Below are positions 6,030 through 37,012 of a stretch of 47,899 nt of DNA, piece by piece (within the stretch, counting starts at the first letter, position 1; each line of letters begins with the position of its first letter). The notes under the pieces are model-generated. The model searched no databases. It saw only the letters and a list, made by a program, of their open reading frames with translations, and had not been told where the DNA came from. A program made the position numbers and the translations under genes. The DNA comes from Armatimonadota bacterium (lineage in GTDB: Bacteria > Armatimonadota > Zipacnadia > Zipacnadales > UBA5352): contig JBNJEK010000003.1 in NCBI GenBank assembly GCA_051745855.1, positions 1 to 47,899 of the forward strand, in the 5' to 3' direction.

Positions 6030-6059
6030 TTGCGCTGGGTCCTTCGGGTGTGCTATAAT
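6030..6059 (+). promoter_or_regulatory. Sigma70-type promoter of the exported-protein operon
   Basis: TTGCGC-N18-TATAAT with an extended -10 (TGcTATAAT). Confidence 0.75.
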
Positions 6060-6282
6060 CCGCTGCCGAAGTAGCTGTGTTCCGGGGACGTCCGGATGGC
6101 GCGGATAAAACCCGGCGGGTGGCCGCTGCGGAAACGGAGACTCTCATGACAGGGGGCAGGGCCAGTTGATATCATCAAGACCGGCCCCTCAACAAGAGAT
6201 GCAACCCGGAAATGAACGAGGATATGCACGATTTGAAGCGCAGCGACTGCATGAGCGCATGCCGCAGGCCCGGGGAGTGATT

Positions 6283-9200
6283 GTGTTGCAGAAGGGACGG
6301 TTCCTTCTGACGCTCACCATATTGACGTGTGCCGCACTTATCTTCTCCACCGCCGTCGACTCCCTGGCTGCGCCCGATCGCACCGCTCAGGAGGCGGATC
6401 CGGTCGCCGCCGCGCGTTACGCCGAGGGTGCGACGACACCCAGTGGCCGGACCTACATCGGCCTCCAGAGGCCCGACTGGCTCTTCGAGCGGATGAGAGA
6501 GATGCGCACCGCGCAGGGCTCCGGCCCCATCCCGGACCTGAACCTCACCCCGGGCGCCACCGACAGTGAGGAACTCTTCGCGAACTCGGCGCCCTACGGT
6601 GAGTTGAACCGAATCGTCATCGCCTCCAACGGCATCGACGAAGATGGCGATGGCAGCTTCGATCCCGATGCCACCGCCGAAAGCTTCAACCTCTGGCAAC
6701 TTCGGGTGGACGGTTCATTCGCCACCCAGCTGACCGACACCGAACACGATGAACTCTACCCGGCATACAGCCCCGGCGCGCGCTTGATCGCGTTCTCTTC
6801 GAACGAGACTGGCACATGGCAGATTTACACCGTCGAGGTGCTCACGGGCACTATCCGACAGCTTACATTCGGCTCGGGGAACAAGTACGAGCCGACATGG
6901 TCGCCTGACAGCAGTTGGATCGTCTTCAGCGGCGACGCCACCGGCAACCGGGACCTGTACATCATCCCGTCCGACGGCTCTGCCCAACCAGAGCCCATCA
7001 CGCAGACGCCCGAGGACGAAACGCAGCCTCGCTGGGCTCCAACCGCGAATGTGGGCTCCGCCCCCATCCTGTTCACCCGCTCCGCGGGGACGACCGGCAG
7101 CCGCATCTTCAGGATCGGCTCCAACGGGCAGGATGAGGAGCAGGTCACCAACGGGGGCGGCGACCCGACCGCCAACGACACCGATCCGGCCTGGCGTCAC
7201 AACGGTCAGTTGATCGCGTTCGCCTCCGATCGGCTCACCGAGGGCGACGACGTGACGATGGACTACAACATCTGGACCGTGCCGCCGAGCGGCGAAGACA
7301 TGACCGAGGCCACGCTCCGGAGCAACCTCGATCCCGACGACACGTACGACGACCGCTACCCGGCATTCAACCCCGGCCTCAATCCGCGACAGCCCATCCG
7401 GATCTTCTTCACCTCCTCGCGGCCAGATGGCGCGGGTGCCGAGCCGGATATATGGCGCTTTGAACTCGACGATCCCGTCCCGCCCGAGCTTGTCGATCTT
7501 CCTTCGGTTGACGCCCCCCGCCGTCTCGTCTCCCCCGGCGGTGAGGTCACAGTGAGTGTCGAGGTCTTCGACGGTGACAGCGGCGTCGCACAGGTCGTCG
7601 CGGAGTTCAAAGACCCCGATTCAGCCGTTGACGACAGCCAGGGCGTCGACCGCAAGCAGTTTCAGCCAATCAGCGTCTCCCTTCAATCCGGCGCCGAGGG
7701 CACCGTCCATCGCGAACTCGATTGTGATACGGTCGGACAGGTCGAGTTGTTCGATGACGGTGATCCGGCCAATGGCGATGAGGTAGCCGGTGACGGGATC
7801 TTCAGCGGCGTATGGACGACACCACCATCACCGAGCGACTACATCATCGATGTCCACGTCCAGGACAACGCGGGCAACGCGTTCGAGTATGACGATATCT
7901 ACGGCTTCACCACCGAGATGTTCGAGCCCACGACCAATGTGCTGTTCGTCAACGACTACTGTGAGGGTCAGGGCTTCATCTTCGCGGCCAGTGGGGCCAA
8001 CAACGACTTCCCCACGCAGTTCCCGGTGGAGAGCTACTACACCACCAACCCCGGCGCGGGAGGCTCGCAGAACACCATCCGCGACGCCCCCCGAGGTACC
8101 GGTGAACCGTACGATATCTGGCGCGTGATCTGTCGAGGGCCGATCACGGTCAGCGACCTGATCTACTACCTGCCCACACGCGAAACGCAACTGTCGGTCC
8201 CGGATCTCACGGGGACGAGCGAAGTGCTCGTTGCGGACCGCGCGATAATCTGGGCCGCTCCGCACACCGGCAGTGTCTGGGCCGGTCCGGGCAGTCTCGT
8301 CGATGCCACCACACAGGCGACGCTGGCGACCTTCCTCGACCGCGGCGGGCGTATGATGATTTCCGGTCAGGACATCGGCTTCGCGCTGACGCTCGATGGC
8401 ACGAGCACCAACAACTTCTACTCTAACTACCTGCACGCCTCATTCGTCACCTCCGACAACAATGGCGTCACCAACGGTGGGATCACCGACGACTTCATCA
8501 ATGGCACCGATGGGGATCCGGTCGTCGCGCACCCGTTCTCATTCTGGCCGCCGGAGGACGTCGAGATTCCGGATGATGACGCCGCCATCGGCTGGTGGGA
8601 GACTGACAACACTCTGTATCCGCAGGACTGCGCTCACTTCACCGTCTGGCCCGATGTGATCCAGGCGACCGGCGACGCAGTCGTCACCCACAGCTACGAC
8701 AACGGCAGGACCGCCGGCCTGCGCTATCAGGCCCCGGCCGGCGGCTATCGTGTCGCCTACTACGCCTGGGGCTTTGAGCAGACCCACAAAGTCTGGGGCG
8801 GCGACGGGCCGCATTCGCTGAATTATCGTTCGAAGTTCATGCACAACACGTTGTGCTGGCTGCGAACAGGCGGCTTCCAGGGCCGAGTGCTGTCGATCAG
8901 CGACGGCAATCAGCCGATAAATGATCCGCCCCCGATCATCCGGGTCATGAGCGGCAACACCATGGTTGCCGCCGTGCAGGCCGAAGAGGACGGGCGTTAT
9001 GTAATGGGTGGTGTCCCGCCCGGTACCTACACCCTCAGCGCCGCCCGGCCGGGCTTTGATATCGACCACTCCACCTCGCGCTCAACGCACGGCGGGCTGA
9101 ACTACCCCGTCGTTGACTTCGCGATCGCGCGCGCCGAACCCGGCGCAATCCGCGGCACGGTGACCTCGCAGGCAACCGGCGAGACGCTCGCCACCGTCGA

Positions 9201-11304
9201 GGTCTGCGCCTACGCCGCGGTAATGCCCGAGGAAGAGGATTCTGAGGAGGAGAACGGCGAACCCGAGCCTGCTCAGATCGACGGCGGGCAGGAATACGAA
9301 CTGGGCACACTCATCGGCTGCACCACGACCGCGGCCGACGGAACCTACCAGATCGGCGACGTCCCGCCCGGCGATGTGGTCGTCGTCGCAAACGGCACCG
9401 ACATCGGTTACGGCACCGAGGAGGCGCTCGTCGAGGTCACGAGCGGGAATACCTCCGAGATCGACCTCGCACTCACCGCCGCTCCGGGGCAGATAGTGGC
9501 CTCCGTTGTTGACGGTGACGGCAATCCGCTCGACAACTCGGAAGTCGAAGTGCTCTCGGAGGGAGCAGTTGTTGACACCGGCACGACCGACGCCAATGGC
9601 GAGGTGACCGTTGAGGTCCAGCCAGGGACATACACCGTCGAGGCCTCGCGCCCCGGCTTTGAGCGCTCCGACCCGGAGGCGGTCGTTGTTGACGCCACCG
9701 AGACAGTCGAAGTCACACTCACGCTCGAGGCCGAGCCGCCCGGCAGCATCTTCGGGCTCATCACCCGCGGCGTCAGCGGCGAGCCGGTGGGCGGCATGAC
9801 CGTTGAGCTTGTCGTCAACGAGGCGGTTATCGACACCACGACTACCACCGAGGACGTCCAGACTGCCACCGATGGCAGCCGCTACAACTACATGTTCGCG
9901 GATGTCCCGACCGGCAACATTACGGTGCGTCCCGATCCAAGCGGCTTCACCGTCTCGCCGACGCAGCGGGTCGTCACCGTCGAGACCGGCGACGAGACCA
10001 CCGGAGTCCACTTCACGGTGAGCAGCATCCGGCAGTTCCCGACCGGCCTTCAACTCATCTCGCTGCCCTATGACTACCCGAACGCCGACCCGGCGGAGCT
10101 GCTGGGCGCGAACCCGGCCGACTTCGACATGGCTGCATGGGAGCCGCGGACAGGCGCGTATTCCCTCTACCCGTCTGCCCCCGCTGACCGCTTCCGGCTC
10201 GGCACCGGCTACTGGCTCAAGCTGGATGAGGTGCGGGAACTCACCCGCGAGGGGCTGCCTGCAGACGACACCTTCGAGCTTCCGCTGCAGGCCGGACAGT
10301 CTGGATGGAACCTGGTCGGGGACTTCTTCCTCGACACACTGGACTTCTACTCGCTCCGGGTCCGAGACCGCAACGGCATCGAGCACACGATGCAGCAGGC
10401 GCTTGCGGCCGGACTCGTGCGCAGCCCGCTGTTCGCCTATCAGCTCGGCGGCTACACCACCTCCGCGGTGGCGGAGCCCTACGTGGGCTACTGGCTGAAC
10501 GTGGGCGAGGACATCACTGTGATCGGGAACCGTCAGACCGACACTCTCTCGGTCGGCGAGGAGGCGACTGCCCCCGCGGTCGCGAAACCCGAGGGTGGAT
10601 GGCTCATGGCCCTGACGGTCACTTCGGGCCAGGCGCAGGACAGCTCAACATGGATCGGCTGCGCGCCCGCTGCCACCAGTGGCTTCGACGCGGGGCTGGA
10701 CATGCTCAAGCCCCCGCCCGTGGAGATGGCAACGATGGTCTACGCGGCCAGCGAGGGGGAAATGGGCCCGCAGGCGGTCGATGTGCGGTCTGAGAGCAAC
10801 GCGGCCTGGACGATGAACGTCGAAGGGCCGGTCGACGAGACTGTCGTTGTGCGCTGGCCCGATATGTCATCGGTCCCACCTGATGTCCGACCGATCCTGA
10901 TTGACACGGCGACCGATCGCAAGGTCTACATGCGGACCGCACAAAGCTACGAGTTCAGCGCGCGTGAGGGCCCGCGGGAACTGCAGATCACATTCGCCGA
11001 GGCCGGAGGCGCACTTGCGATCTCAGCGCCGGCCGCGCGCACTACAGGCGCCGGGGCCGAGATCACCTACACGCTGTCCGCCGATGCACAGGTGAACGTG
11101 CAGGTCCTCAACATCGCAGGTCGCGTCATCGACAGCGTCGTCAACGACGACCTGCAGACAGCGGGGGCACAGAGGATAAGCTGGGACGGACTGTCGAGCC
11201 GGGGCACACGGGCACCGAGTGGAACCTATCTCGTCGTGGTGTCCGCGCGTGCCGAAGACGGACAGAAGACACAGGCGATCGGCACACTGTCACTGGGGCG
11301 TTAG
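6283..11304 (+). CDS. Large exported multidomain protein: TolB/PD40 propeller, choice-of-anchor-X-like motif, GATase-like domain, several carboxypeptidase-regulatory-like (CnaB/transthyretin-type) repeats, shared C-terminal module with FlgD-Ig-like end
   Basis: Signal peptide after a GTG/TTG start with SD GGGGAG; PD40 repeats (PAYSPG, PTWSPD, PRWAP, PAWRHNG); LFDDGDPANGDEVAGDGIFSG; FLDRGGRMMISGQDIG; repeats of the G.I.G.V / PPGTYT type; NIAGR...WDG...PSGTYLV end. Confidence 0.8.
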   Translation: MLQKGRFLLTLTILTCAALIFSTAVDSLAAPDRTAQEADPVAAARYAEGATTPSGRTYIGLQRPDWLFERMREMRTAQGSGPIPDLNLTPGATDSEELFANSAPYGELNRIVIASNGIDEDGDGSFDPDATAESFNLWQLRVDGSFATQLTDTEHDELYPAYSPGARLIAFSSNETGTWQIYTVEVLTGTIRQLTFGSGNKYEPTWSPDSSWIVFSGDATGNRDLYIIPSDGSAQPEPITQTPEDETQPRWAPTANVGSAPILFTRSAGTTGSRIFRIGSNGQDEEQVTNGGGDPTANDTDPAWRHNGQLIAFASDRLTEGDDVTMDYNIWTVPPSGEDMTEATLRSNLDPDDTYDDRYPAFNPGLNPRQPIRIFFTSSRPDGAGAEPDIWRFELDDPVPPELVDLPSVDAPRRLVSPGGEVTVSVEVFDGDSGVAQVVAEFKDPDSAVDDSQGVDRKQFQPISVSLQSGAEGTVHRELDCDTVGQVELFDDGDPANGDEVAGDGIFSGVWTTPPSPSDYIIDVHVQDNAGNAFEYDDIYGFTTEMFEPTTNVLFVNDYCEGQGFIFAASGANNDFPTQFPVESYYTTNPGAGGSQNTIRDAPRGTGEPYDIWRVICRGPITVSDLIYYLPTRETQLSVPDLTGTSEVLVADRAIIWAAPHTGSVWAGPGSLVDATTQATLATFLDRGGRMMISGQDIGFALTLDGTSTNNFYSNYLHASFVTSDNNGVTNGGITDDFINGTDGDPVVAHPFSFWPPEDVEIPDDDAAIGWWETDNTLYPQDCAHFTVWPDVIQATGDAVVTHSYDNGRTAGLRYQAPAGGYRVAYYAWGFEQTHKVWGGDGPHSLNYRSKFMHNTLCWLRTGGFQGRVLSISDGNQPINDPPPIIRVMSGNTMVAAVQAEEDGRYVMGGVPPGTYTLSAARPGFDIDHSTSRSTHGGLNYPVVDFAIARAEPGAIRGTVTSQATGETLATVEVCAYAAVMPEEEDSEEENGEPEPAQIDGGQEYELGTLIGCTTTAADGTYQIGDVPPGDVVVVANGTDIGYGTEEALVEVTSGNTSEIDLALTAAPGQIVASVVDGDGNPLDNSEVEVLSEGAVVDTGTTDANGEVTVEVQPGTYTVEASRPGFERSDPEAVVVDATETVEVTLTLEAEPPGSIFGLITRGVSGEPVGGMTVELVVNEAVIDTTTTTEDVQTATDGSRYNYMFADVPTGNITVRPDPSGFTVSPTQRVVTVETGDETTGVHFTVSSIRQFPTGLQLISLPYDYPNADPAELLGANPADFDMAAWEPRTGAYSLYPSAPADRFRLGTGYWLKLDEVRELTREGLPADDTFELPLQAGQSGWNLVGDFFLDTLDFYSLRVRDRNGIEHTMQQALAAGLVRSPLFAYQLGGYTTSAVAEPYVGYWLNVGEDITVIGNRQTDTLSVGEEATAPAVAKPEGGWLMALTVTSGQAQDSSTWIGCAPAATSGFDAGLDMLKPPPVEMATMVYAASEGEMGPQAVDVRSESNAAWTMNVEGPVDETVVVRWPDMSSVPPDVRPILIDTATDRKVYMRTAQSYEFSAREGPRELQITFAEAGGALAISAPAARTTGAGAEITYTLSADAQVNVQVLNIAGRVIDSVVNDDLQTAGAQRISWDGLSSRGTRAPSGTYLVVVSARAEDGQKTQAIGTLSLGR

Positions 11305-11418
11305 TCGCGTCACCCGCGGGGCTTTTCGGCGTCGCGGATGCAGTTGCACATTCGATTGCGTGCGCATCATCCGGCGCTACGCGTCTCTGAACCGCATGCC
11401 GGGAGGAGCAACGAGATA

Positions 11419-13368
11419 ATGCATCGATTACACGCGAGCCGCACTTGGAAATTCGTCGCTCTCTACGTTGCAGCGACGATGGTGGTACCCTATGCAGTAG
11501 TCGGCTTCCCGGTGGATGCCGAAGCCCAGGCACAGCCTGTGGTGGAGAGCGCGTCCGCCATCGTGCTTCCTATTCAGGATCCCGATGGCTCGGTGGATTC
11601 TGTGCTCAGTCAGAAAGCCACCGACGCACTGGCACTTGCCATGGAGGGCTCTGAGCAGTTCCTGGTGACGTCGCGGATGGATCTTGAGCGCGAGTTGCGC
11701 CAACTTGATCTCGAGCCACCCCTGTCTGACGCCGAGAAGATCCGGCTTGGCGATCGCCTCGCCGTCGATCAGGTGGTGACCGGCGAGATCACCGAACTGC
11801 GAATCAACGAGCGCACCGGCGAGGTGGACATCTCCATCGCGGTCGGTCTGCTTGACGTGGCCATCGGCGAGTACCTCAACGGAGCCATCGTCAGCATCAC
11901 GACCAAACGCCTCCCCGGCTGGCACGGCGAGGAGTCACGGGTGATCAACGGCGCCCTGCGAGAGGTTTCGGACCAGGCCGTGTCCGAGATACTGACCAAT
12001 CGCGTCGCGGAGGGGTTCGTCACATCCGTGAACGACTTCGGCGTCGCCACCATCAACGTCGGACGCGACGACCGTCTCGCACCGGGTATGGAGATGCTGC
12101 TGCTCAGGCCTGTCTGGCAGCGGGACCTCGAAGAGATGACCATGGTCAAGGTGGGCCGCTACAGCGTCAGTGAGGTCAGCGCCCACCGCGCCAAACTCGT
12201 TTCGCTCGAGGGTGATGATGGCGGCTACGCCACCGTCGCGGATCGGGCCTACAAGCTCTATCGCGGGCCGGAACGGATGGAGGCGTACAAGCGCAAGGCA
12301 TCTACCGATCAGACATTGACGATCGGGGCTGCGATCCTCGCGGTGCTCGGGGTCGTCGCCATCGCTGACGGCTCTTCAACCGAAGACGCACCGAAGGGCG
12401 TCAGCTCACATCTCTATCAGGACGCACCCGGCGATGAGGCCGTGATCCGGGTCAGTGTGGCAAATTCGACGCTACCACTCGCTGAGCAGGTTTTCGCGTG
12501 GCTTTTCTTCCGCAGCGACGGCCAGCAGAACTTCAGCCTGCTCGCTCAGAATCTGGTGGGCGCCTCATTCGAGAGTCGACTGGCCGGCGGTGTCTGGGAT
12601 GACGGGCCCGAGTTCGAGACATTCGAACTCGAGCGGGAGTTTACTTGGATCGGCGCGGACGGCGAAGAGGAGGACGGCGACATCGAACTGCTCTTCCACG
12701 ACTTCCCGCTGCAGGCCGGCCATACATACTACCACCGGGTGCAGCGCGTCGTCGAGCCGCCCTCACGGGCCGGAAGCGGGTCGCCGATCGTGACCCAACA
12801 GCTCCGGCCGGCGCAGGACGAAGATCTCGACGATCCTGAACTGAACGTAGATCCGACCAGTGCCCTTGGAGAGGGCAGCAGGGCCACCCAGGGCGTGACG
12901 TACTTCACGCCCCCGGTGCTCCAGTCGCCAGAAGGCGGCGCACAGAACCAGTCAACCAGCTCAATCACTTTCACATGGAACAGCACGCAGGGCGCGAACG
13001 AGTACATCCTGCAGGTCTTCCCGGAGGATGACCCGGACGGTCGGCGAGCGCCGCGCTACCAGGCTCAGATCCGGCAGGACACCAGCGGCACGATGTTCCA
13101 CACGATCAACGACACCTTCGACTCAAGCGCCCGCTTCTACTGGCGCGTCGGCGCGCGCCGGTCCGGCGAGCCGGAGCCGGAGAATCGGCGACTCGGCCGG
13201 GGCTGGCTGTTCAGCAACATTCGCACGTTCACAACTGCCGCGGCACCGCCGGCCCCGCCCGGAAGCACGGCAGCGGGTCATTCGCCCGACGGTGGGAGCG
13301 TCCGCGGTAATCACTTCGGGCAGGGCTGGTACCAGCGGCCCGATGGACCGAGCCAGGGCATCCAGTAA
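11419..13368 (+). CDS. Exported protein with a CsgG/TolB-N/FlgT-like N-terminal region, an internal hydrophobic helix and FN3/Ig-like C-terminal domains
   Basis: SD GGAGGAG; signal ending DAEA-Q; AIVLP..KATDALALAM..LGDRLAVDQVVTGEI pattern; segment IGAAILAVLGVVAIA; FTWNSTQGANEYILQV..FYWRVGA..FSNIRTFTT. Confidence 0.65.
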   Translation: MHRLHASRTWKFVALYVAATMVVPYAVVGFPVDAEAQAQPVVESASAIVLPIQDPDGSVDSVLSQKATDALALAMEGSEQFLVTSRMDLERELRQLDLEPPLSDAEKIRLGDRLAVDQVVTGEITELRINERTGEVDISIAVGLLDVAIGEYLNGAIVSITTKRLPGWHGEESRVINGALREVSDQAVSEILTNRVAEGFVTSVNDFGVATINVGRDDRLAPGMEMLLLRPVWQRDLEEMTMVKVGRYSVSEVSAHRAKLVSLEGDDGGYATVADRAYKLYRGPERMEAYKRKASTDQTLTIGAAILAVLGVVAIADGSSTEDAPKGVSSHLYQDAPGDEAVIRVSVANSTLPLAEQVFAWLFFRSDGQQNFSLLAQNLVGASFESRLAGGVWDDGPEFETFELEREFTWIGADGEEEDGDIELLFHDFPLQAGHTYYHRVQRVVEPPSRAGSGSPIVTQQLRPAQDEDLDDPELNVDPTSALGEGSRATQGVTYFTPPVLQSPEGGAQNQSTSSITFTWNSTQGANEYILQVFPEDDPDGRRAPRYQAQIRQDTSGTMFHTINDTFDSSARFYWRVGARRSGEPEPENRRLGRGWLFSNIRTFTTAAAPPAPPGSTAAGHSPDGGSVRGNHFGQGWYQRPDGPSQGIQ

Positions 13369-13416
13369 CGCGCAGGGAGCGAAGGAAGGAACGGGCCGCG
13401 GTTTTCGGCCCTAACC

Positions 13417-14580
13417 ATGCGGACAGGAAATCGGTGCAGTGCAGCGTTGACGCTGATGACCACGCTCGCGCTGGTGGCGGGCCTGCACTGCACCGCGGAT
13501 GCCGACAAATGGAGCCTCTTCGCTTTTGTGAGCGCGGAGGGAAACCTGCAGGCCGCCGGCAATGACTACGCACACAGCCTTATGACGGTCGCAGCAGAAG
13601 CGGACCTGACAGTTGCACTGCAGATTGACAACGGGACCGACAGGCCGGTCAGGCACCTCCTGTTCGATGGCCGTGTGAGATCGATCGGTGAGAGCCAGGC
13701 CCCTGAGCCGTCTTCGCATCACGGGGAGTTTGCGGATTTCTTCCGATGGGCGCGGGACAGCACGAACGCAGACCGCTATGCGGTGGTGGTCTTCGGCCAT
13801 GGAGTGAGCGCGTCCGGCCGCGGGTGGGATGGCGCAAGAGCGGGATCCTGGCCGATGCTCGGCCTCACGTCACGCGCCGACGGAGCGCCCCTGCGGCCTG
13901 CCGCGTTGGCCACGGCCATGCGCGAAGGACTCGGGCGCAGTGCGGATGTGCTCGTTCTTGACACCTGCTACGGTGCAAGTCTCGAGGCAGTCTGGGACCT
14001 CCGGCGGGCCGCCGATGTGATCGTCGCATCGCCAGGGCGGGTACCCAGCACGGGCATGCCGTGGGAACGTGCGCTTTTGGAGGCGCCTGGCACGGCTTCG
14101 GCCGCCGATACGGGCCGGCGATGGGCAGGCGCAGGGGAAGGGGCGGTCGCAGTGGATACGCGCGGTCTCGTGTCGGTGGCGGAAAGCATTGCCGCTCTTT
14201 CGACGGCTCTGCTCGAGGACATTGACGAGTTCGCGCCGGCCCTGACCGCAGCGCGGAGCTCAAGTGACGCGTGGGGCTGGCAGAATGAGATGTGCAATCT
14301 ACGCGAGCTTTGCGACGCGCTGGCGCAGCACTGTGGGGATGGAGTGAGCGAGGCCGCTCTGGACGCCGTAGCCGCGCTCGACGATTGCATTGTGTCCGAC
14401 GGCGGAGCATTGACAGTGCCATTTCCGGCGGGACTGTGGGCCGAAGGCGTGGTCTCGCAGCCCGAAGGTTTCAACGAAATCAGCCGCTGGGGCGAGATGA
14501 CGGCCGCATATCTCGACCGGCAGCAGCAACTGATGCGTAGAACACTCGATGACCTGAGGCCCGACGGCGAAGCGACGTAG
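13417..14580 (+). CDS. Exported clostripain-family (C11, clan CD) cysteine peptidase
   Basis: Signal peptide; WSLFAFVSAEGNL; ADRYAVVVFGHG (catalytic His); DVLVLDTCYGASLE (catalytic Cys); VIVASP. Confidence 0.8.
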   Translation: MRTGNRCSAALTLMTTLALVAGLHCTADADKWSLFAFVSAEGNLQAAGNDYAHSLMTVAAEADLTVALQIDNGTDRPVRHLLFDGRVRSIGESQAPEPSSHHGEFADFFRWARDSTNADRYAVVVFGHGVSASGRGWDGARAGSWPMLGLTSRADGAPLRPAALATAMREGLGRSADVLVLDTCYGASLEAVWDLRRAADVIVASPGRVPSTGMPWERALLEAPGTASAADTGRRWAGAGEGAVAVDTRGLVSVAESIAALSTALLEDIDEFAPALTAARSSSDAWGWQNEMCNLRELCDALAQHCGDGVSEAALDAVAALDDCIVSDGGALTVPFPAGLWAEGVVSQPEGFNEISRWGEMTAAYLDRQQQLMRRTLDDLRPDGEAT

Positions 14581-14663
14581 CGCCTCCGGTCGATCGCAGA
14601 GATGAATGCAGCAAGCGCTCCAGAGCTGGCCGGCACGCCTTGCGGTCAGGAGGAGGAGTCAAA

Positions 14664-17600
14664 GTGAGTCGGCTTCCCAGGACAAAAGCCCCCGCGCGCG
14701 GTGCAATCTTCGCGGTGACAGCACTACTGGTCGTTCTTTCGAGCCCGAGCTGGGGTGCGGCCGGCTACGACGATCTCGCCGGCCCCCTGCGCGGCATTGC
14801 GATGCAGGCCGAGCAGGGCGTCGGCACGGCAACAGCCGGCCAGGACCTGCTCGTTCTCGTGCAGTTCAAGAGCGCTACGGCCGCAGCGGCGAACAACCTC
14901 GCCGCGCACGGCGCGACTGTGCGTCTCCGCCACGGCGACCGCGTCGAGGCATTCGTCAGCGCGGATCGCCTGCTTGAGATTGCGGAGCTTCCGGATGTCG
15001 CGCAGGTTCGGCCGCCCAACTACCTGCAGTCGTGTCAGGGCTTCGGTGCCACGCGAAGCGAGGGAGTGCGCCTCGTCGGTGCGGTGCCCTTCCACATATC
15101 CGGCATCACCGGGAGCGACGCGACCGTCGCCGTCATCGACACCGGCTTCGTTGGTTTCGACGACGCTGAGATCCCGGTGGATCCGGACGATCCCGACGAC
15201 GTCGTATCATTCCGGGCCGGAGGCGGCCTTGGCGGGACAACGCACGGCAGCGCGGTGGCGGAGGTCGTCGCGGACATGTCGCCCGGGGCGGACATGGTCC
15301 TGATTGCAGTCGACACAGAACTGTCAGTGGAGAGCGCGGTCGATTACGTGATTAACCGCGACATCGACGTCGTCTGCATGGCCCTCGATCTGCTGGGAGG
15401 GCCCTACGACGGCACGCATCCCCTCTCTCGCAAGGTCAACCAGGCCCGTGATCGGGGCGTCTTCTGGGTCAACGCGGTCGGCAACTCAGCCCGCCGCCAC
15501 TGGATGGGCGACTGGACCGACCGCGACCGTGACGGATTCAACGAGTTCAGCATGGGCGATGAGAGCATCAACGTCACACTGCCGGCCGGAAACTACCGGG
15601 CGTTCCTGAGTTGGTACGAGACCGCCGGCAGCCAGACCGATCGCGACTACGACCTCGTGCTGTATGACTCGGGGGGGGAGGAGATCGGACGTTCGGGCTT
15701 CACTCAAAACGGCGATGATCCTCCGCTGGACGTGCTCGACGCACAGATACCCACCGAGGGCACCTATGAACTGAGAATCCAGCGGATGTCAGGCCCGGAC
15801 GCGGTGGACAGCTTCCAGCTTTTCTCAGTGCTCCGCGACATCGAGCAGTCCCACCAGATCGCTGAGTCCAGCGTCACCATCCCGGCGGAGGCCGAGGGGG
15901 CATACGCCGTTGGCGCAACCCGCGGGCAAGAGGTGGACGTTCCTGGCGAGCCCGCTCTTGAGGTCGATGAGCTGGAGCTGTTCAGCTCACAGGGGCCCGT
16001 CGTCGGTCATCCCGAGCGAATCAAGCCCCAACTTGTCGCGCCGAACGCCGTCAGCACCAGCATCTTTGTTGACGCAGATGACCAGCCGACACCGTTTGTC
16101 GGCACCTCGGCGTCGGCCGCCCACGTAGCGGGCGCGGCAGCACTACTGCTGTCTGAAGATCAACTGCGCACCCCGGAGGAGATTGAGCGCGTCCTCCGGA
16201 CGCAGGCGGTGCAGTTGGAGCAGCCGGTGCCGAACAACCGGACCGGGTGGGGCCGGCTGAATATGCGCATTGGCGCGGACAGTCGTCCCCCGACAGTCAC
16301 GATCTCCTTCCCGGAGAACGGCTCCAACATCACGACCCGGTTGCCCACCATCGTGGCGTTCATGACGGACGGCGGCTCGGGTGTCGATCCGACATCGATT
16401 ACGCTTGAGCTGAACGGCGAAATCGTCTTCGATGGTAGCGAGGTTGACGACATCGATGACTTCTTCGACGCACGAACGGGTCGATTCAGCTATCCGGTGG
16501 AGGATCCGCTCGCACGCAGCAATCACACAGGGATCATCCGCGTGTCCGACAGCGCCGGCAATGAAGCCGATCCGGCGGTGACCAACTTCCGGATCTCGGC
16601 CCCGACGTTCCCGGCAGGGGTGTCGATGGTCTCGTTCCCATATCGCGACCTCTCGGTGGCCGACCCCGCGGCAATCCTCGGGATTCCGGAGTCCGAGATC
16701 GCGCTGGTGCGGTGGTGGCCGCTCGACACAAACATGGACAAGTATCACTTCTACCCGGATGACCGCGCCAGCCTCGTGCCTCCGGACACGCAACAGAGCG
16801 ACATCAACGCTCGCACGGTCCCATATCCGCCCGCGGGCCTCGGCTACTTCCTGAGCATCCCACGGCAGGCCGTGCTCGACATTCAGGGCCAGCCGCTGCA
16901 GGATCTGGCCAGCACGCATATACGGCTCTACCGCGGCCAGCAGCCGCCGCGAGGATGGAATCTCATCGGCAATCCCTTCGATGAGCCTGTCGGATGGGGC
17001 ACCGTGCAGTTCGAGATCGGCAATGACCGCCTCGACCTCAGGGAAGCTATCGACGAGGGCGTCACGGAGGGCGTGCTGTTCGAGTTCGTTCAGGGCGTCG
17101 GGGATGATCCGGGCTTCTATGACTTCAACCCCGAGCCTACCGCAGCGGTGATGGAGCCGCGGAAGGGCTACTGGGTGCATGTGAACGAGGACGCGCGTGC
17201 CCGCATCTACTCAAGCGGCATCGGCGGGGCGAGCGTTGCCGCCGCGTCCGAGGATGCGCAGGCCGCGTCCGACGGGTGGATGCTTACGTTGCAGGCCCGC
17301 GCCGGTGAATACGTCGATCCGCGAACGATCATCGGCGTGCAGTCAACCGCCAGCGCCGGCTACGATCCGCAGTGGGATATTCCGAAGCCACCCGCCGTCG
17401 CGGACGGCCTCCAGGTCTCGATGGTCAGGGACGGATGGGGCGAAAACTCGGGCGCCTATGCCCGGGACGTCCGTGGACCCGCCGACCCAGGAGAGTGGCA
17501 GGTTCAGGTGGCCTGCGCGCTGCCCAATCGCGAGGTCGAGTTGACCTGGCCGAACCTCAATGCTGAGGTGCCCGGCGATGTGCGCCTGGTCCTCGAGGAT

Positions 17601-18005
17601 CAGGAGACCGGCCGGACGGTGTATATGCGCACCTCCTCGTCCTTCCGCTTCCAGACCGGCGATGACGGCGGGGTCAGGCATCTGACGATAAGGACAGCGG
17701 AGGGCGCGGGCTCTCTGGCCGTCAACACCATGGCCGCGCAGAAGACGTCAAGCGGCGCGATGATTACCTACGCGCTCTCGTCACCGGCGGAGGTCTCGGT
17801 GGAAGTCATGAACATTGCCGGGCGGATGATTAAGTCATTCCCCGCGCGCGAGGTCGAAGGCGGGACACAGGAGACGGTCTCCTGGAACGGCGTCAGCGAT
17901 CGGGGCAGCGCAGTGCCCTCCGGACGCTACATTGTCCGGCTGACCGCACTGGCTGCGGATGGACAGACAGTTCAGGCAATGCGGCCGTTCAGCATTGAAA
18001 GATAA
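14664..18005 (+). CDS. Exported S8 subtilisin-like serine peptidase with an Ig domain and the shared C-terminal module
   Basis: Triad VAVIDTG / HGSAVA / GTSASAAHVAGAAALL; oxyanion residue in NAVGN; IKPQLVAP; SD GGAGGAG before GTG. Confidence 0.88.
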   Translation: MSRLPRTKAPARGAIFAVTALLVVLSSPSWGAAGYDDLAGPLRGIAMQAEQGVGTATAGQDLLVLVQFKSATAAAANNLAAHGATVRLRHGDRVEAFVSADRLLEIAELPDVAQVRPPNYLQSCQGFGATRSEGVRLVGAVPFHISGITGSDATVAVIDTGFVGFDDAEIPVDPDDPDDVVSFRAGGGLGGTTHGSAVAEVVADMSPGADMVLIAVDTELSVESAVDYVINRDIDVVCMALDLLGGPYDGTHPLSRKVNQARDRGVFWVNAVGNSARRHWMGDWTDRDRDGFNEFSMGDESINVTLPAGNYRAFLSWYETAGSQTDRDYDLVLYDSGGEEIGRSGFTQNGDDPPLDVLDAQIPTEGTYELRIQRMSGPDAVDSFQLFSVLRDIEQSHQIAESSVTIPAEAEGAYAVGATRGQEVDVPGEPALEVDELELFSSQGPVVGHPERIKPQLVAPNAVSTSIFVDADDQPTPFVGTSASAAHVAGAAALLLSEDQLRTPEEIERVLRTQAVQLEQPVPNNRTGWGRLNMRIGADSRPPTVTISFPENGSNITTRLPTIVAFMTDGGSGVDPTSITLELNGEIVFDGSEVDDIDDFFDARTGRFSYPVEDPLARSNHTGIIRVSDSAGNEADPAVTNFRISAPTFPAGVSMVSFPYRDLSVADPAAILGIPESEIALVRWWPLDTNMDKYHFYPDDRASLVPPDTQQSDINARTVPYPPAGLGYFLSIPRQAVLDIQGQPLQDLASTHIRLYRGQQPPRGWNLIGNPFDEPVGWGTVQFEIGNDRLDLREAIDEGVTEGVLFEFVQGVGDDPGFYDFNPEPTAAVMEPRKGYWVHVNEDARARIYSSGIGGASVAAASEDAQAASDGWMLTLQARAGEYVDPRTIIGVQSTASAGYDPQWDIPKPPAVADGLQVSMVRDGWGENSGAYARDVRGPADPGEWQVQVACALPNREVELTWPNLNAEVPGDVRLVLEDQETGRTVYMRTSSSFRFQTGDDGGVRHLTIRTAEGAGSLAVNTMAAQKTSSGAMITYALSSPAEVSVEVMNIAGRMIKSFPAREVEGGTQETVSWNGVSDRGSAVPSGRYIVRLTALAADGQTVQAMRPFSIER

Positions 18006-18051
18006 CATGCTCATCGCGAGAGGAGCTGACTCTTTAGTGGAGTGGCAAAGA

Positions 18052-20853
18052 ATGCTGACAACAATGCGGACGGTTGCTGCCGTGGTCTGTTCGGTGTGTT
18101 TGCTGGCCGTCACAGTCGCGCCTGCGGTGGCACAGAACGCTCGTACGACCGTCCAGCACCCCGCGGGTTTGACACGTATGCTCGTCGATGCCCCAGCGCT
18201 TATCGAGGTCGGCACGAGTGGCGACGATCCCACGTTCGTCTATCAGCCTGCCGGAAGATTCCAACTCTGGACCGGTCCGAATGCACCGACCGGTGGCAAT
18301 CCTCTGATCTCGGGGGACGAAGACCGCCCGTTCGCCAGCGTGGAGACGGGAACGGGGACCTGGGACCTCACCCAGTTCACCTCCAAGCTCACCATCTCGG
18401 TGGATGGCGAGCAGTTCGACCCCTACCTCGAGATGTTCAATCAGGATGACGAGACCAACGCGGCAGACCTGCCGCTTTTCTGGCTGACCGACCCTGTTGC
18501 CGGCGCACGCGACGTGGTTGGAGAGGTCCTTGTCCCGCTGACAACCGATGTGCCTGAAGATGATGAGCCGAACCTGCGCCTGCGCCAGAACTACGAGCTG
18601 GTCCACGACGGCGTCATGCTCGAGCACATCATCTACAACGAGGACACCTCCTCGCACAACGTCGGTTTTCGCGTTGCGATAGACGCCCTGTTCGGTGGTG
18701 CGACACGGGATGGCACATCGATCATCCTCGACGATGGAACTGTGCTGACCGCGGAAACCCAGATACCCGATTCCAACAATCCGAACGTCGAAATGCCTGA
18801 CTCGTGGATCTCGCACGACGATCCGGACAACCCCCTGATCAGCGTCAGTGGAACTATCGACGGGGATGAGGTGCGCGATGCCGGCATCGCTTCGGAGTCG
18901 GCCGGCAGGCCCGATTCGATCGCTTTCGGTCAATACCGCAACATCGCGCGTAATCGCCAGTTCGACTTCCAGCCGAATCCGAGGGCTTCGCTCACGGACG
19001 AGGACTGGGCATACGCGGTGCGCTGGGATGAGAGGGCACTGCAGCCCGGGCAGAGCAGGCGTTACGTGACCTACTACGGTCTCGGTGCGGCGGCGGTTGA
19101 CTACGATCCGCCCTACGCTCTGGCGGCCTATGCGCCGGCCTCGCTGCAGGTGGAGGAGGGCGATGACCCCGAAACACCCGAGACAGAAAGCTTCCACCTC
19201 GTGGATCCGGACGGGAACTCTGTGTTTGAGGTCGCGGCCGCTATCGACAACTTCGGCACGATGCCGATCAACAGCGCCAATGTTCGAATCAGTCTGCCGC
19301 CCGGTCTCGAACTGTATCCCGAAACGCAACGGTTCTCGATCTCCATGGGGACTATCATGCGCAATCAGGCTCCGCTGCCAATTGCGCGGTGGACGGTTCG
19401 GGCCGACGGGGCGCGCCCTGGCACCGCGGAGATCGAGATTACCGGTCCACTGGGCAAGGTCGTCAGGCGACAGATCAGCATCCCCGCGGTCCCGATCATC
19501 CCGGGTCGAGAATCGGAGCTTGGGCTCGAGATGCTTTCGGTACCCTATGAGTTCGTCAACTCAGATGCCAGCAACGTCTTCGGCTCACTGAGCGATTCCG
19601 TGCATCCCGGCGGACCGGCCGCCCTCTGGCGATACAATCCCGAGCGGCAGGAATACCAGAGCTACCCCGAACCGTTCGCATCGAACATCGAGCCTGGCCG
19701 TGGCCTTTGGCTGCTGAACCAGAACCGCGAGACGATCGTGCTGCCGGAGGACGCAGAGGAAGTGCCCGACAACCTCGCGTACAACGTCAGCGTCAGCGCT
19801 GGTTGGAATCAGATCGGGAATCCGTTCGTCGTGCCAATCCGCTTTGACCGGGTCGAGGTCATAGGTCCGGATGGCACACAGTGGAGCATCTCCGAAGCCG
19901 CCAATCGCGGACTGATTCTCCCGGTACTGTATGCATATGACGCCGCACAAAACGAGTACACGTGGGAGACTTCGCTTCAGGCGATGGATGTCGTGCCATT
20001 CGAGGGCTACTGGCTTTTGGCCTACCGGGACGTCACACTCGTCTTCCCGCCGCCGGGCCTCGGTACCGCCGCGACAGCGGCTACTGCCGACGCGCCGGCC
20101 CTTCCGGACGATGGCTGGCAGGTCGGGCTCGAGGTTGAGGCCGCGGGGCAGACGCGCGCTCCCAGGTATCTCGGCGCGGCGTCCGGCGCCAGTGACCAGA
20201 TGGATGTGATGGACGTTCCCGCGCCACCTGCGCTTCTTCGCGCAGGCCCCGAGCTTGACGCCTGGTTCACGATCGAGGGCGCTGAGAATGCGCCGCGCTA
20301 CCTGGCGGACACCCGCAGTGCGGATACCGCGCGACAGACCTACAACCTGACAGTCCTGTCCGAGGCGCCTGGCGCGCCGGTCACGATTCGCTGGCCGGGG
20401 CTGTCGAGCAGTCTGCCTGATGACATGGTCGCGACTCTCGAGGATGTCGCGGCGGACCGACGGGTGTACATGCGGACGAGCGAGTCGTACACATTCAACT
20501 CGCAGACCGGTGGCGCGCGGCAGTTCACCATCACCGTGCGGCCGCGAGCAGAGGCAACGCTTGGTCTCAGCGCGACGGCCCATGCAGTGGCCGGCGCCGG
20601 ACTGGAGATCGCCTACACCCTCAGCAGCGACGCGGCTGTGGACGTCGAGATTCGCAACATAGCCGGCCGGGTCGTGCGCAAACTCGCGGATAATCGCGGC
20701 GCATCGGAGGGACAGAACACTCTGATGTGGAACGGAGTGAGTGAGGCAGGCACCGCCGTGCCCGCCGGAACGTATATCGTTCAGGTAACTGCTCGCTCGC
20801 CAGAGACTGGTGAGCAAACGAGCGTGATCCGGACAGCGACCCTTGCACAGTGA
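18052..20853 (+). CDS. Exported protein with an unknown beta-rich N-terminus and the shared C-terminal module (FlgD-Ig-like end)
   Basis: Signal ending PAVA-Q; GWNQIGNPF, VYMRT and NIAGR..WNG..PAGTYIV. Start uncertain (18037 or 18052). Confidence 0.75.
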   Translation: MLTTMRTVAAVVCSVCLLAVTVAPAVAQNARTTVQHPAGLTRMLVDAPALIEVGTSGDDPTFVYQPAGRFQLWTGPNAPTGGNPLISGDEDRPFASVETGTGTWDLTQFTSKLTISVDGEQFDPYLEMFNQDDETNAADLPLFWLTDPVAGARDVVGEVLVPLTTDVPEDDEPNLRLRQNYELVHDGVMLEHIIYNEDTSSHNVGFRVAIDALFGGATRDGTSIILDDGTVLTAETQIPDSNNPNVEMPDSWISHDDPDNPLISVSGTIDGDEVRDAGIASESAGRPDSIAFGQYRNIARNRQFDFQPNPRASLTDEDWAYAVRWDERALQPGQSRRYVTYYGLGAAAVDYDPPYALAAYAPASLQVEEGDDPETPETESFHLVDPDGNSVFEVAAAIDNFGTMPINSANVRISLPPGLELYPETQRFSISMGTIMRNQAPLPIARWTVRADGARPGTAEIEITGPLGKVVRRQISIPAVPIIPGRESELGLEMLSVPYEFVNSDASNVFGSLSDSVHPGGPAALWRYNPERQEYQSYPEPFASNIEPGRGLWLLNQNRETIVLPEDAEEVPDNLAYNVSVSAGWNQIGNPFVVPIRFDRVEVIGPDGTQWSISEAANRGLILPVLYAYDAAQNEYTWETSLQAMDVVPFEGYWLLAYRDVTLVFPPPGLGTAATAATADAPALPDDGWQVGLEVEAAGQTRAPRYLGAASGASDQMDVMDVPAPPALLRAGPELDAWFTIEGAENAPRYLADTRSADTARQTYNLTVLSEAPGAPVTIRWPGLSSSLPDDMVATLEDVAADRRVYMRTSESYTFNSQTGGARQFTITVRPRAEATLGLSATAHAVAGAGLEIAYTLSSDAAVDVEIRNIAGRVVRKLADNRGASEGQNTLMWNGVSEAGTAVPAGTYIVQVTARSPETGEQTSVIRTATLAQ

Positions 20854-20911
20854 CACTCGGGGTCACCTTTCGTAGCACGCAGCCGACACGCGGAAAGATG
20901 AGGAGAATGCA

Positions 20912-21985
20912 ATGATGACGCCGATACGATCCAGCAAGCTGGTCGGTCCCGTCGGCATTATGCTCGCGATGGTCATGCTGGCGGTCCTGGTGCCGACGAG
21001 CGTCTTGCCCCATGCGGATGCGCAGGGGCAAAACCGGCTGCTGCTGTTGTTCCCGGTGATCGACGGTAGCGCGTCGGACCAGGAGGACGTGGCCACCCGG
21101 ATGACCGCCTACCTCCAGATGGCCATGAACCAGAGCGTGGACATGAGAGTGGCTGAGTTCTCGCGCACCAATCCGCTGGTGCTCAGGGCGGTCGAGGAGG
21201 GCCGGATCCGGGCGGTGGACCTTGAAACTGAGGTGCGCGACCCGATCACGGCGATCCAGCTTGGCTTCGCCCTCGATGCCGACGAGGTGTGTCTTGCGAC
21301 CATCACCTCCATCGATGTCAGCGAAGAGCCGCTTCAGGTGGAGCTTCTGCTGAACGGGCAGTGCTACGACGTAGCGGCCAACATCGACGCTGAGACGATG
21401 CAGGTGGCGGAGAGTCCGGAGCCCAGCAACACATTCGGCGTCTCCGGATCGAGCAATGTCCGTGAGGGCTACGACGCTTCCATCCAGCCGCTGCTCCGCG
21501 AGGCGATGAAGTCCGCTGCCACCGCTGCCGCGAGCGTGCTGTCGGGCGAGCCGGCCGAGGAGGCCGCTCAGAAGAAGGAGAAGCGCGATGACAAGAGCTG
21601 GCGATGGATCGTTGCCGGCGCTCTGATTGCCGGCCTCATCGTCGCGTCTGAGAGCGGTGGCAATGGCGGCGACCAGCCCGCTGATGAGGCACTGGCACCG
21701 CGGCCGTTGCGCATGGAGATAGAACCGTCGGCGATCGAGCTGTTCTGGGCGCCACCGAACACCACGTTAACGGTGCTGCGCTACGATCTGCAGCGCTCAA
21801 CCGACAACGGCGCAACATGGAATCCGGTGCCGAATTCCCAGGGCAACATTCTTCCCGACGACACGGTCTTCGCTGACTTCGCTGTGGTTGAGGGCCAGTC
21901 ATATCGGTACCGCATTCGCGCGCAATACACCACCACGGGGCCGTCGCCATGGGCAGAGTTCGGCGACGTGCAGTTCCCTGGATAG
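20912..21985 (+). CDS. Exported protein paralogous in architecture to 11419-13368 (CsgG/TolB-N-like domain, internal hydrophobic helix, FN3 domain)
   Basis: SD AGGAG; signal ending HADA-Q; WRWIVAGALIAGLIVAS; FN3 pattern IELFWAPP..YDLQRS..SYRYRIRA. Confidence 0.7.
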   Translation: MMTPIRSSKLVGPVGIMLAMVMLAVLVPTSVLPHADAQGQNRLLLLFPVIDGSASDQEDVATRMTAYLQMAMNQSVDMRVAEFSRTNPLVLRAVEEGRIRAVDLETEVRDPITAIQLGFALDADEVCLATITSIDVSEEPLQVELLLNGQCYDVAANIDAETMQVAESPEPSNTFGVSGSSNVREGYDASIQPLLREAMKSAATAAASVLSGEPAEEAAQKKEKRDDKSWRWIVAGALIAGLIVASESGGNGGDQPADEALAPRPLRMEIEPSAIELFWAPPNTTLTVLRYDLQRSTDNGATWNPVPNSQGNILPDDTVFADFAVVEGQSYRYRIRAQYTTTGPSPWAEFGDVQFPG

Positions 21986-22010
21986 GCGGTAACCGTCTGA
22001 GTTGACCTGT

Positions 22011-24038
22011 ATGACTGCCTGTGATGACGGCTGCCCGCGGCGTCGAGCGCGCCAGCGGGCAGCCCCGCTTAAGGTCAGCGTCAGCCGAGCGCTGCTGGTA
22101 CTTGTCGCAGCGCTGGGCTGCGTCAGCGCGTGCGCGCAGGTGCCCCGCCTGAACGGAGTTCGCGTCAATCTGTGGCCAAGTCCGCGTGTGGTGCCGGCGG
22201 ACGGGAAGACCCAGGCCACCATCCGCGCCGATCTTCGCGACCGCAACGGCATGCCAGTCGCGGATGGCACCACGGTCGTCTTCAGGATCGACGGCGGAGA
22301 CCTGAGCCTCGATGGCAACGAGCGGCGACAGGTGATCTCCACCGAGACGACGAACGGCTCCGCGACGGTCTTTGTGACCGGGACCGAGACGGGCACCGCG
22401 ACGGTCTATGCCGAACTGACAAGCGGCGAGGGGCGGAACCAGGCCAGCGTCGCCTTCGTTGAGGAGGGCAGTTCACTCCTCGGCGGCACCGGGGTCGTGC
22501 ATGTCCGCGGGAACTGGGTCGGCTATGCTCTGGATCTCGCCATCATCGAAGCGCGCGATGAGGCAGAGGTGGAGTTCGCAGGGGTAAAGGTCGTCTCGCC
22601 CGATGTCCTTCAGGTTGATGTGCGCAGCTTGACTGTCAAGGCGATGAACGCCGAAGTGCACGCGCCTGGCGGGGTCATCGAGGCGACCGACCTCAGCTAC
22701 AACCTCCTGTCGGGGCAGGGGACCCTTCGCCGCATGGGTGAGGCGGAGTATGAGGAACTGTGTTTCGACTGCTACACGCTCGAAGAGCGCGAACCCGACT
22801 ACGACCTGCAGGCTGAGACGTTCCGGCTTGACACCGGCAATGCCGCGGTGTGGGCGGTGGCGGACGGAGTGTCGGTCCATCCTCAGGAGAAGGTCGTCCT
22901 GCGTCACGCGACGCTCTACGCCGGCGGGAAGAAGGTCACGTCCCTCCCGAAATACTGGATCATCGCGATGCCGGGATATACCGGGACGACGCACTCGCGT
23001 GTTCTCGGCGTCAACTCCAGCGGCGAGATCGCGGTTGACTTCCCCTACTTCTACAATGTGACTGAGACACGTACGAGCGCGATCAAGCTCCAGCACGGCG
23101 CCTCATCGGGGCGCGTCATCGCGCGTGATGACTGGTCGCTGGCCCTGGAGGAGAGCTACGACACGGGCAGCGCGGAAGGGAGCGTGTCGCTGGTCGGGCT
23201 CCCGCGTGATGACTGGGGCCTGCAGTGGCGCGATCAACGAAATCTTGGCGGCCGGCGCGACGGCTACTTCACGGTCTACTCGCCCGACCACAAAAGCTGG
23301 TATGCGGACGCCAACGTATACGAGATCACCGGCGATCGCCGGCTGAATCTGACAGCGTCGCTCCGGCGGCCGAGCGGTGGGGATTTCTCTTACTCCCTCG
23401 GCGCCGACTGGCTCACCATGAATCAGCCGCTCGGTCTGTGGGATGCGAGCTATCGCCTCGGCACCTCCGTCGGCCTTCGTCACATCGACGGCTTTGATGA
23501 CGGGATCGTCGCCGAGAATCAGCTTTACGGTGCGATCGACCTGCCACGATATCACCTCGGCGAACGCACATCGGTCACCCCAAGCTTCAGCAACCTCTTC
23601 ACATGGGACACCGCTGGATACAACTTCAACACCGTGCGCGGTGAACTGAGGCTGCGTCAGATCGTCAGTAGTGATAAGTCGGTGAACGTTTCGTACCGGG
23701 GGGATCTGACGAGTGGGGAGGGTGCTCGGGGCTACCGCCACTCGGTGAGTCTCGATCTGCGCGCCTATCACGGCCGTCGCATATCGAGCTACGCCACAAC
23801 GACGTACGACCTCAGCGACTCCGAGTTCTACGGCTTCGGCCTGATCGACTATCAGATCGACGACAGGTGGCGGCTCGGGCTGGCCGGGACCTACTACGAC
23901 CTGGGCGAGACAGCCTACGACGATGTGCAGGTGACCGTGGCCAGACGGCTGGGGCCGACTGAGGTAGGGCTGCGATGGTCTGAGGAGAGCGGGCGGCTTT
24001 CATTGGAGCTGGGCGACTTCGGCGGGCTTGGGATGTAA
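22011..24038 (+). CDS. Exported protein with an invasin/Big_1 Ig domain followed by an LptD/OstA-like region and a probable outer-membrane beta-barrel
   Basis: [31 protein letters not shown] is Big_1-like; the C-terminal half is rich in amphipathic aromatic beta-strands. Start uncertain. Confidence 0.6.
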
Positions 24039-37000: not shown

Positions 37001-37012
37001 GGAAAAATCACA

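Follow-up and report, generated by a model that had tools for sequence, protein, structure and literature searches.

A three-domain C-terminal module shared by three proteins of an Armatimonadota gene cluster as a candidate surface-display element

A stretch of 47,899 nucleotides (nt) from an Armatimonadota bacterium of the Zipacnadia (UBA5352; GenBank assembly GCA_051745855.1, contig JBNJEK010000003.1, positions 1 to 47,899; hereafter the window) encodes three proteins, called P1, P2 and P3, that end in the same kind of tail behind unrelated N-terminal parts, or passengers. The tail, referred to here as the module, consists of three separable domains (D1, D2 and D3). It stands at the C-terminus of proteins with signal-peptide-like N-termini, the anchors found downstream of D1 vary, and the genes for its carriers recur in a conserved order. 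We read the module as an extracytoplasmic display element of Sec-exported proteins, in which D1-D2 would form an anchor-proximal pedestal and D3 would be the terminal sorting or attachment domain, and we give this reading about an even chance of being correct. An earlier note on this DNA had proposed a lineage-specific sorting or lattice-polymerisation module. The sorting idea stood in that the module is C-terminal on exported proteins and D3 is homologous to sorting domains, and fell in that D1-D2-D3 as a whole is not a sorting signal. For polymerisation into a lattice, no support emerged.

The modules comprise the C-terminal 419, 462 and 443 residues of P1, P2 and P3 (coordinates in Table 1) and run up to the stop codon in all three window open reading frames (ORFs). 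A MAFFT alignment of the three spanned 489 columns, with 34-36% identity to the first sequence and ~90 invariant columns, and blastp of module against module returned E-values of 9e-60, 3e-52 and 1e-42. Chance resemblance was ruled out by these values. The passengers gave E ≥ 0.047 against one another, in agreement with the earlier claim that the tail sits on three unrelated proteins. The motifs listed in the earlier note were recovered in a common order in all three modules, with VYMRT starting at 10924, 17619 and 20464, exactly as it had placed them, and NIAGR starting at 11110, 17811 and 20656. When all six-frame ORFs of the window were searched with a hidden Markov model (HMM) of the module, no fourth copy was found.

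The structure of the P1 module was predicted with AlphaFold2 from an 84-row alignment (A3: the window sequences, 71 locus stretches and 10 short representatives). The resulting model contained three all-beta domains, with a predicted local distance difference test (pLDDT) score of 94.7 and a predicted TM-score (pTM) of 0.82. An earlier model from the three-sequence alignment only was poor (pLDDT 58.4) and was set aside. The pTM implies that the packing between domains is fixed; confidence was lower in the Ala-rich linker between D1 and D2. The three domains were mutually unrelated (hhalign probability < 4%). D1 has an invariant GWN, in a nearly invariant 'GWN..G.PF' context, and a conserved 'GYW'. 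Gly, Pro, Trp and Tyr predominated among the positions conserved in the 84 sequences (Y39, G87-W88-N89, G92, W186, P223-P224 and G359), and no catalytic-looking residue set was seen.

The ~330 residues upstream of D3, for which the earlier note had recognised no name, were covered by no Pfam or NCBIfam family even at E ≤ 10; scans of D1-D2 from six sequences at this threshold returned nothing except two chance-level rows. No named family lay over D1-D2 in 44 representatives scanned with Pfam or in divergent loci, and D1-D2 was a member of no choice-of-anchor, Pfam or NCBIfam model. D1 had no match among PDB sequences. Foldseek, run with the whole module model and not with D1 or D2 singly, found no specific fold in PDB, only generic multi-Ig matches with query TM-scores (TMq) ≤ 0.21; the top match, the archaeal S-layer protein 7ptp, was weak (E 5.7e-5, TMq 0.18). 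The sole strong BFVD match was A0A8D9C8P8 (E 9.3e-15, TMq 0.48), a protein of 587 aa recorded for an uncultured marine phage as 'putative hemin binding protein'. It is probably a homolog of the module, perhaps a copy that is carried by the phage or was mis-binned; its name says nothing on function. In a protein atlas, the clusters nearest to D1-D2 were unnamed Armatimonadota ones, and the nearest named clusters carried Por_Secre_tail at scores of only 0.80-0.84. With D1 alone and named clusters only, the best score was 0.83 and no Pfam family was common to the matches.

D3 was the only part expected to resemble a FlgD Ig-like domain, over the last ~90 residues, and FlgD_ig (PF13860) indeed matched the last ~70 residues of all three modules above its gathering cutoff of 27 bits (P1 37.8, P2 31.1 and P3 42.0). 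When the A3 profile was searched against PDB, the FlgD structures 7eh9 and 7bhq were matched at 1e-11, the C-terminal domain (CTD) of PorU (6za2) at 1.2e-4 and PorZ (5m11) at 0.036. In 10 of the 14 divergent loci scanned, the domain that follows D1-D2 passed TIGR04183, the model of type IX secretion system (T9SS) type A sorting domains (24.3-44.6 bits vs the cutoff of 23). Two of these ten also passed FlgD_ig, so the two models overlap in practice. The tails of the ten loci were aligned by hhalign to 82 D3 rows (A3 without L067 and L071, mostly Armatimonadota) with 98.0% probability and E 1.4e-13; with the 6za2 match, this places D3 in homology to confirmed T9SS type A CTDs. Judged by these profiles, D3 is a Pfam FlgD_ig member and is homologous to the T9SS type A sorting domains without scoring as one of them. 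The likeness to FlgD, the flagellar hook-cap protein, is confined to this domain: the window carriers are without the N-terminal or Tudor-like part of FlgD, are large Sec-exported enzymes or propellers and not flagellar proteins, and whole proteins scored far below the FlgD equivalog cutoff (e.g. 33.5 vs 230). With T9SS type A cargo (TIGR04183/PF18962 Por_Secre_tail; PorU, PorZ) they share an Ig-like beta-sandwich of ~70-90 aa at the extreme C-terminus, N-terminal signal peptides and highly varied passengers.

In order to determine distribution and position, a D1-D2 profile was searched against 1.84 billion representatives of clusters at 50% identity, which gave 9,021 matches at E ≤ 1e-3, 4,534 at ≤ 1e-10 and 712 at ≤ 1e-30. 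The match ended 80-125 aa from the protein end in 141 of the 150 top representatives, with a median of 95 aa, which is the length of D3. The nine exceptions (P0105, P0117, P0121, P0129, P0150, P0168, P0170, P0190 and P0191) were fragments, D1-D2-D1 forms or, for P0191, an internal module. By domain HMMs, D1-D2-D3 stood at the very end of 184 of 199 collected proteins and of 75 locus ORFs. Signal peptides were judged throughout by a Kyte-Doolittle hydrophobicity heuristic and not by SignalP. P1, P2 and P3 each begin with a charged stretch and then a hydrophobic run typical of Sec signal peptides, so that extreme C-terminal position and heuristic N-terminal signal peptide go together in the three window ORFs. 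A hydrophobic stretch was present at the N-terminus of 94 of the 115 representatives whose module is preceded by more than 300 aa, whereas only 4 of 115 control windows from protein interiors had one; several of the 21 representatives without it plainly begin mid-domain. The check that the earlier note had called for, C-terminal placement on exported proteins, thus came out in its favour.

Its claim of lineage specificity did not survive. A pattern scan of genome contigs gave 606 matches, of which 135 were confirmed and 80 loci were kept. These were mostly from Armatimonadota (Zipacnadia, Fimbriimonadales, Chthonomonadales, Capsulimonadaceae and Armatimonadales), with other records titled Calditrichota, Bacteroidota, Salinibacter/Salinivenus, Krumholzibacteriota, Latescibacterota and 'Hatepunaea'; D1 and D2 were present under the first five of these titles and also in proteins named for Ignavibacteria, Thermodesulfobacteriota and Coprothermobacterota. 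Copies per assembly in this narrow scan reached at least three on one UBA5352 contig and at least five in JAAYJW01. For 10 unusual representatives, no names were found among their cluster members.

The passengers were varied. In the 44 Pfam-scanned representatives, picked from 149 for distinct lengths, they were S8 subtilases, giants with PD40 and CarboxypepD_reg, C39-like proteins, FG-GAP/ASPIC proteins, C11 with Big_13, or nothing named. Such carriers bear on an alternative in which the tail binds a ligand or substrate, like a carbohydrate-binding module, and targets secreted hydrolases to polymers without taking part in sorting. Hydrolases are numerous among the carriers (S8, S53/sedolisin, M6, C11, PhoD and glucodextranase-like), and the conserved aromatics of D1 (GWN, GYW, Y39 and W150) would suit such a role. 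However, propellers, FG-GAP proteins, LVIVD repeats and choice-of-anchor D Ig arrays, none of them enzymes, carry the module too. Gly, Pro and Trp make up most of the invariant residues, which look like core positions, and D1 nearly always adjoins the C-terminus or a sorting signal. We therefore consider substrate binding improbable.

The terminal placement was examined with a D1-only profile, which matched 381 of 7,999 candidates scored among longer proteins at E ≤ 1e-3. Of these matches 120 were listed, 116 of them new, and among the new matches listed only 5 extended more than 130 aa beyond their last module domain, and D1 itself was terminal in 15. The matches listed included Ignavibacteria 'choice-of-anchor D' proteins with Por_Secre_tail, a Bacteroidota 'T9SS type A sorting domain-containing' protein, M6 metalloproteases, a Thermodesulfobacteriota choice-of-anchor Q protein and a Coprothermobacterota DUF3604 protein. 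CFI-box-CTERM (NF041770) directly followed D1 in 3 of 15 proteins scanned (80.7-93.6 bits vs 40). Among the locus ORFs, D1 alone was terminal in 26, mostly from Capsulimonadaceae, Armatimonadales or unassigned Armatimonadota; four of these were scanned and had sedolisin-like or DUF7948/SBBP passengers, or nothing named. Other locus ORFs ended in D1-D2 without D3 (3), in D2-D1-D2-D3 (3) or in D1-D2-D1 (1, with four representatives of the same architecture). The D1-D2-D1 family (P0050, P0129, P0170, P0190, P0245-P0263; L064 894-3017), in which the second D1 replaces the C-terminal D3, comes from unclassified 'bacterium' records and often has a Glucodextranase_N domain.

Choice-of-anchor is the NCBI name for domains located N-terminal to different classes of C-terminal sorting signal. 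D1 behaves in this way, since it precedes TIGR04183, CFI-box-CTERM, or D2 with a FlgD-type D3, or else is terminal: it adjoins whatever C-terminal sorting element a lineage uses, or itself ends the protein. Choice-of-anchor domains of types X, B, D and Q are also found together with it. The placement of D1 directly upstream of varied sorting elements is like that of choice-of-anchor (A-X) and CFI-box-CTERM proteins, but no existing model of those families matches D1 or D2. The choice-of-anchor X-like motif that the earlier note saw in P1 could be confirmed marginally (NF041940, residues 526-564 of the passenger region, 25.9 bits vs a cutoff of 25). The idea of the ~430 aa as one sorting unit was not upheld, because the domains are separable and D1 stands before several signals or alone; of that idea, D3 is left as the only plausible sorting element. 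In a group of M6 metalloproteases of ~1,700 aa (P0334, P0338, P0340 and P0354) and in the 371-aa P0336, a linker of ~68 aa separates D1 from a C-terminus of the form 'GGGGGGC[FL][FLC]...'. This tail was recognised by none of the NCBIfam models; it may be a sorting signal without a name, akin to CFI-box-CTERM.

In the display reading, D3 would act after Sec export as a terminal recognition or attachment domain, like its T9SS homologs. The envelope would recognise D3 for outer-membrane export, surface attachment or both, and D1-D2 would serve as a rigid pedestal by the anchor, spacing the passengers (the PD40/CarboxypepD_reg giant, the S8 subtilase and the unnamed protein) from the cell surface. 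P1, P2 and P3, ancient paralogous fusions encoded in one operon, would then probably be co-displayed as a surface set for proteolysis or nutrient acquisition. One member of the Armatimonadota, F. sacchari, is described as diderm by cryo-electron microscopy (PMC11535203). With a diderm envelope, an outer-membrane step is needed if the module proteins are at the surface.

Several observations weigh against the display reading. The window D3 domains fall below the curated TIGR04183 cutoff of 23 bits (P1 19.9, P3 20.5 and, for P2, nothing at E ≤ 0.01), TIGR04183 reached E ≤ 1e-3 in only 9 of 84 module rows, two of them outside titled Armatimonadota, and resemblance to FlgD models, to which D3 is nearer, was more frequent (82 of the 84). 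The window proteins end in '...LSLGR', '...FSIER' and '...ATLAQ', without the K/hydrophobic ending of the three CTD-type tails compared. The host phylum is outside the Fibrobacterota-Chlorobiota-Bacteroidota (FCB) group, and the abstracts of PMC12398890 and PMC7192894 describe T9SS as a system particular to the FCB superphylum or to Bacteroidetes. Literature searches on T9SS in Armatimonadota (Armatimonadetes) turned up no relevant paper, and the passages on secretion in the Zipacnadia paper (PMC10290634) mention type II secretion and flagella but not T9SS. The absence of a specific fold among the whole-model Foldseek matches gives no help either. Finally, D3 is absent in some lineages (those with terminal D1 or D1-D2-D1), so it is not the sole functional element.

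These points bear on an alternative in which the type II route secretes soluble exoenzymes and their C-terminal tail is a passive extension, either an aid to folding or maturation or a stalk that may be cleaved off. The tail would then neither sort nor anchor in Armatimonadota, and D3 would be no more than an Ig-like domain. The type II secretion just cited and the extracellular S8A peptidases reported for the lineage in the same passages (PMC10290634) would fit it, as would the closeness of D3 to FlgD_ig rather than TIGR04183 and the lack of a documented T9SS for the phylum in the literature found. Among cell-envelope subtilases, Foldseek also gave weak matches, with E of about 1e-4 to 2e-3, to the C-terminal Fn3 stalks of ScpA/C5a peptidase (1xf1 and 7bj3), SpyCEP (6vjb) and Vpr (8jmw), which are likewise tandem beta-sandwiches C-terminal to an S8 protease. 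Known subtilase stalks of Fn3 or Ig type space the S8 protease from its cell-wall anchor. The module differs from them in that TM-scores were 0.2 or lower, there was no sequence similarity, and their anchor chemistry is LPXTG. Against a passive extension stand the strict terminal placement, the homology of D3 to real T9SS sorting domains that are borne on D1-D2, and the association of D1 with several unrelated sorting signals. We consider it unlikely.

The carrier genes lie in a window of ~65% G+C, in the order polA, rpsA, coaE, seven plus-strand genes, uvrB, uvrC and more housekeeping genes (Table 1). In tblastn searches of the 80 loci, the order rpsA-coaE-P1-g2-(C11)-P2-P3-g6-g7-uvrB recurred in Armatimonadia/Zipacnadia-type records. 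The order of the block, within positions 5958-24038 of the window, was kept in L001, L003, L004, L017, L020, L021, L026, L047, L050 and others, although the flanking genes were not all present in every locus. The P1 passenger was matched in 23 of the 80 loci, g2 in 23, P2 in 12 and P3 in 14. Fimbriimonadales have rpsA-coaE-P1-g2 and then a module protein of ~990 aa, and Chthonomonadales have a similar P1-first arrangement. Within the window block, genes are separated by 17-60 nt or overlap slightly, and terminator-like sites were no commoner than in shuffled sequence (4 found vs 8.2 expected). Given the short gaps and this lack of excess terminators, it is reasonable to infer that the seven-gene block is a single operon.

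Table 1. Features of the gene cluster in the window (P, module carriers; g, neighbouring genes; D, module domains)
Feature	Positions	Strand	Description
P1	6166..11304	+	1712-aa ORF; signal-peptide-like N-terminus, then passenger, then module
P1 passenger			PD40/TolB-like propeller repeats; choice-of-anchor X motif; three CarboxypepD_reg domains
P1 choice-of-anchor X motif	7741..7857		In the passenger
P1 module	10045..11301		C-terminal part of P1
P1 D1	10045..10542	+	About 166 aa, module residues 1 to about 166; unnamed beta-sandwich
P1 D2	10594..11010	+	About 139 aa, residues about 184-322; unnamed beta-sandwich with 'GW', 'D..KPP', 'WP' and 'VYMRT'
P1 D3	11026..11301	+	Residues about 328-419; FlgD_ig-type Ig-like domain
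g2	11338..13368	+	676 aa, unnamed; by eye a central hydrophobic helix, then an Fn3-like C-terminal part
g3	13417..14580	+	Secreted clostripain-like (Peptidase_C11, clan CD) cysteine peptidase with 'FGHG' and 'DTCYG' motifs; without module
P2	14640..18005	+	1121-aa ORF; signal-peptide-like N-terminus, S8 subtilase, module
P2 module	16617..18002	+	C-terminal part of P2
P2 D1	about 16617..17207	+
P2 FlgD_ig match	17757..17954	+
P3	17959..20853	+	964-aa ORF; the database start is 18052, giving 933 aa; signal-peptide-like N-terminus, unnamed ~490-aa passenger, module
P3 module	19522..20850		C-terminal part of P3
P3 D1	about 19522..20046
P3 FlgD_ig match	20593..20799
g6	20912..21985	+	357 aa, unnamed; by eye a mid-protein hydrophobic helix, then an Fn3-like C-terminal part
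g7	22002..24038	+	678 aa; signal peptide, Big_1/invasin-D3 domain, ~500-aa C-terminal region

The history of the three fusions was examined in a quick IQ-TREE maximum likelihood tree of 84 modules, with SH-aLRT (Shimodaira-Hasegawa approximate likelihood ratio test) support only. Modules grouped by passenger type across genomes, in P1, P2 and P3 clades of 8, 10 and 11 rows with SH-aLRT of 100 each, and passenger labels changed 13 times on the tree against a shuffled mean of 41.5, a value matched in 0 of 200 shuffles. This clustering indicates that the fusions are old and vertically inherited and not recent copies. Recent duplication or gene conversion within a genome was ruled out on the same grounds.

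The conserved operon and the maintenance of the modules as distinct paralog lineages are also what would be expected if the tails served co-assembly, binding each other homo- or heterotypically so that P1, P2 and P3 form a surface complex or S-layer-like array; the weak match to 7ptp points the same way. Against this, what Foldseek matched were generic Ig-like domain chains, D1 is also found as a lone terminal domain or before other sorting signals, and the module occurs on many other passengers in thousands of clusters, which a generic role in localisation fits better than a specific interface. Complex prediction with the P2 module and P3 module alignments gave a score of 0.00, which was weighed neither for nor against binding. 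Co-assembly appears quite improbable to us.

The remaining genes of the block were compared with families and structures. No Pfam, NCBIfam or PDB family was found for g2 or g6, and g2 gave chance-level rows only against PDB sequences; their N-terminal domains are weakly paralogous (25% identity over 159 aa, E 4e-5). The ~500-aa C-terminal region of g7 has an alternating pattern that, by eye only, looks like an outer-membrane beta-barrel. g7 had no match among PDB sequences, its homologs are named only 'Ig-like domain-containing protein' or 'hypothetical', and their organisms are all Armatimonadota except for two weak last rows. Its end overlaps the start of the uvrB ORF by 11 nt. The P3 passenger also had no match among PDB sequences. 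C11 peptidases like g3 are fused to the module in other genomes (P0096 and P0120). Clan CD also includes PorU, the sortase of T9SS, which retains its C-terminal domain.

With these neighbours, a stronger version of the display reading can be put forward, in which Armatimonadota, as diderms outside the FCB group, would carry out CTD sorting and attachment through FlgD-Ig-type relatives of T9SS sorting domains, by a cryptic divergent T9SS or a separate machine, and the operon would encode both the principal cargos and parts of the apparatus. Candidates for such parts would be g2 and g6 as unnamed membrane proteins, g7 as a putative protein of the outer membrane and the clan CD peptidase as a PorU-like processing enzyme. 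We regard this version as unlikely.

D1 and D2 represent two large nameless families (at least 9,021 clusters for the D1-D2 profile) placed where bacteria put surface-sorting signals, and naming them would improve the annotation of thousands of proteins now called 'hypothetical' or 'FlgD Ig-like domain-containing'. D3 ties a T9SS-type sorting domain to a phylum without a described T9SS and makes the export and retention of surface enzymes in Armatimonadota testable. The conserved operon, in which the three module carriers are accompanied by a C11 peptidase and by three envelope proteins without a name, offers a defined genetic target in cultured Armatimonadota.

The true start of P1 is probably near 6259-6280, ~30-40 codons downstream of 6166, because of the start of its ortholog P0052 and a promoter-like site at 6146-6175. 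This site, the sole plus-strand one in the cluster (10/12 matches, with a TG extension), coincides with the opening codons of the long P1 ORF. Outside the cluster, a 730-aa radical SAM protein (Radical_SAM_N2 and Radical_SAM) is encoded on the minus strand at 35114-37306. A plus-strand ORF at 35042-36412 overlaps this gene, has no family match and is probably a shadow ORF, and an unmatched plus-strand ORF at 34278-35045 lies just upstream.

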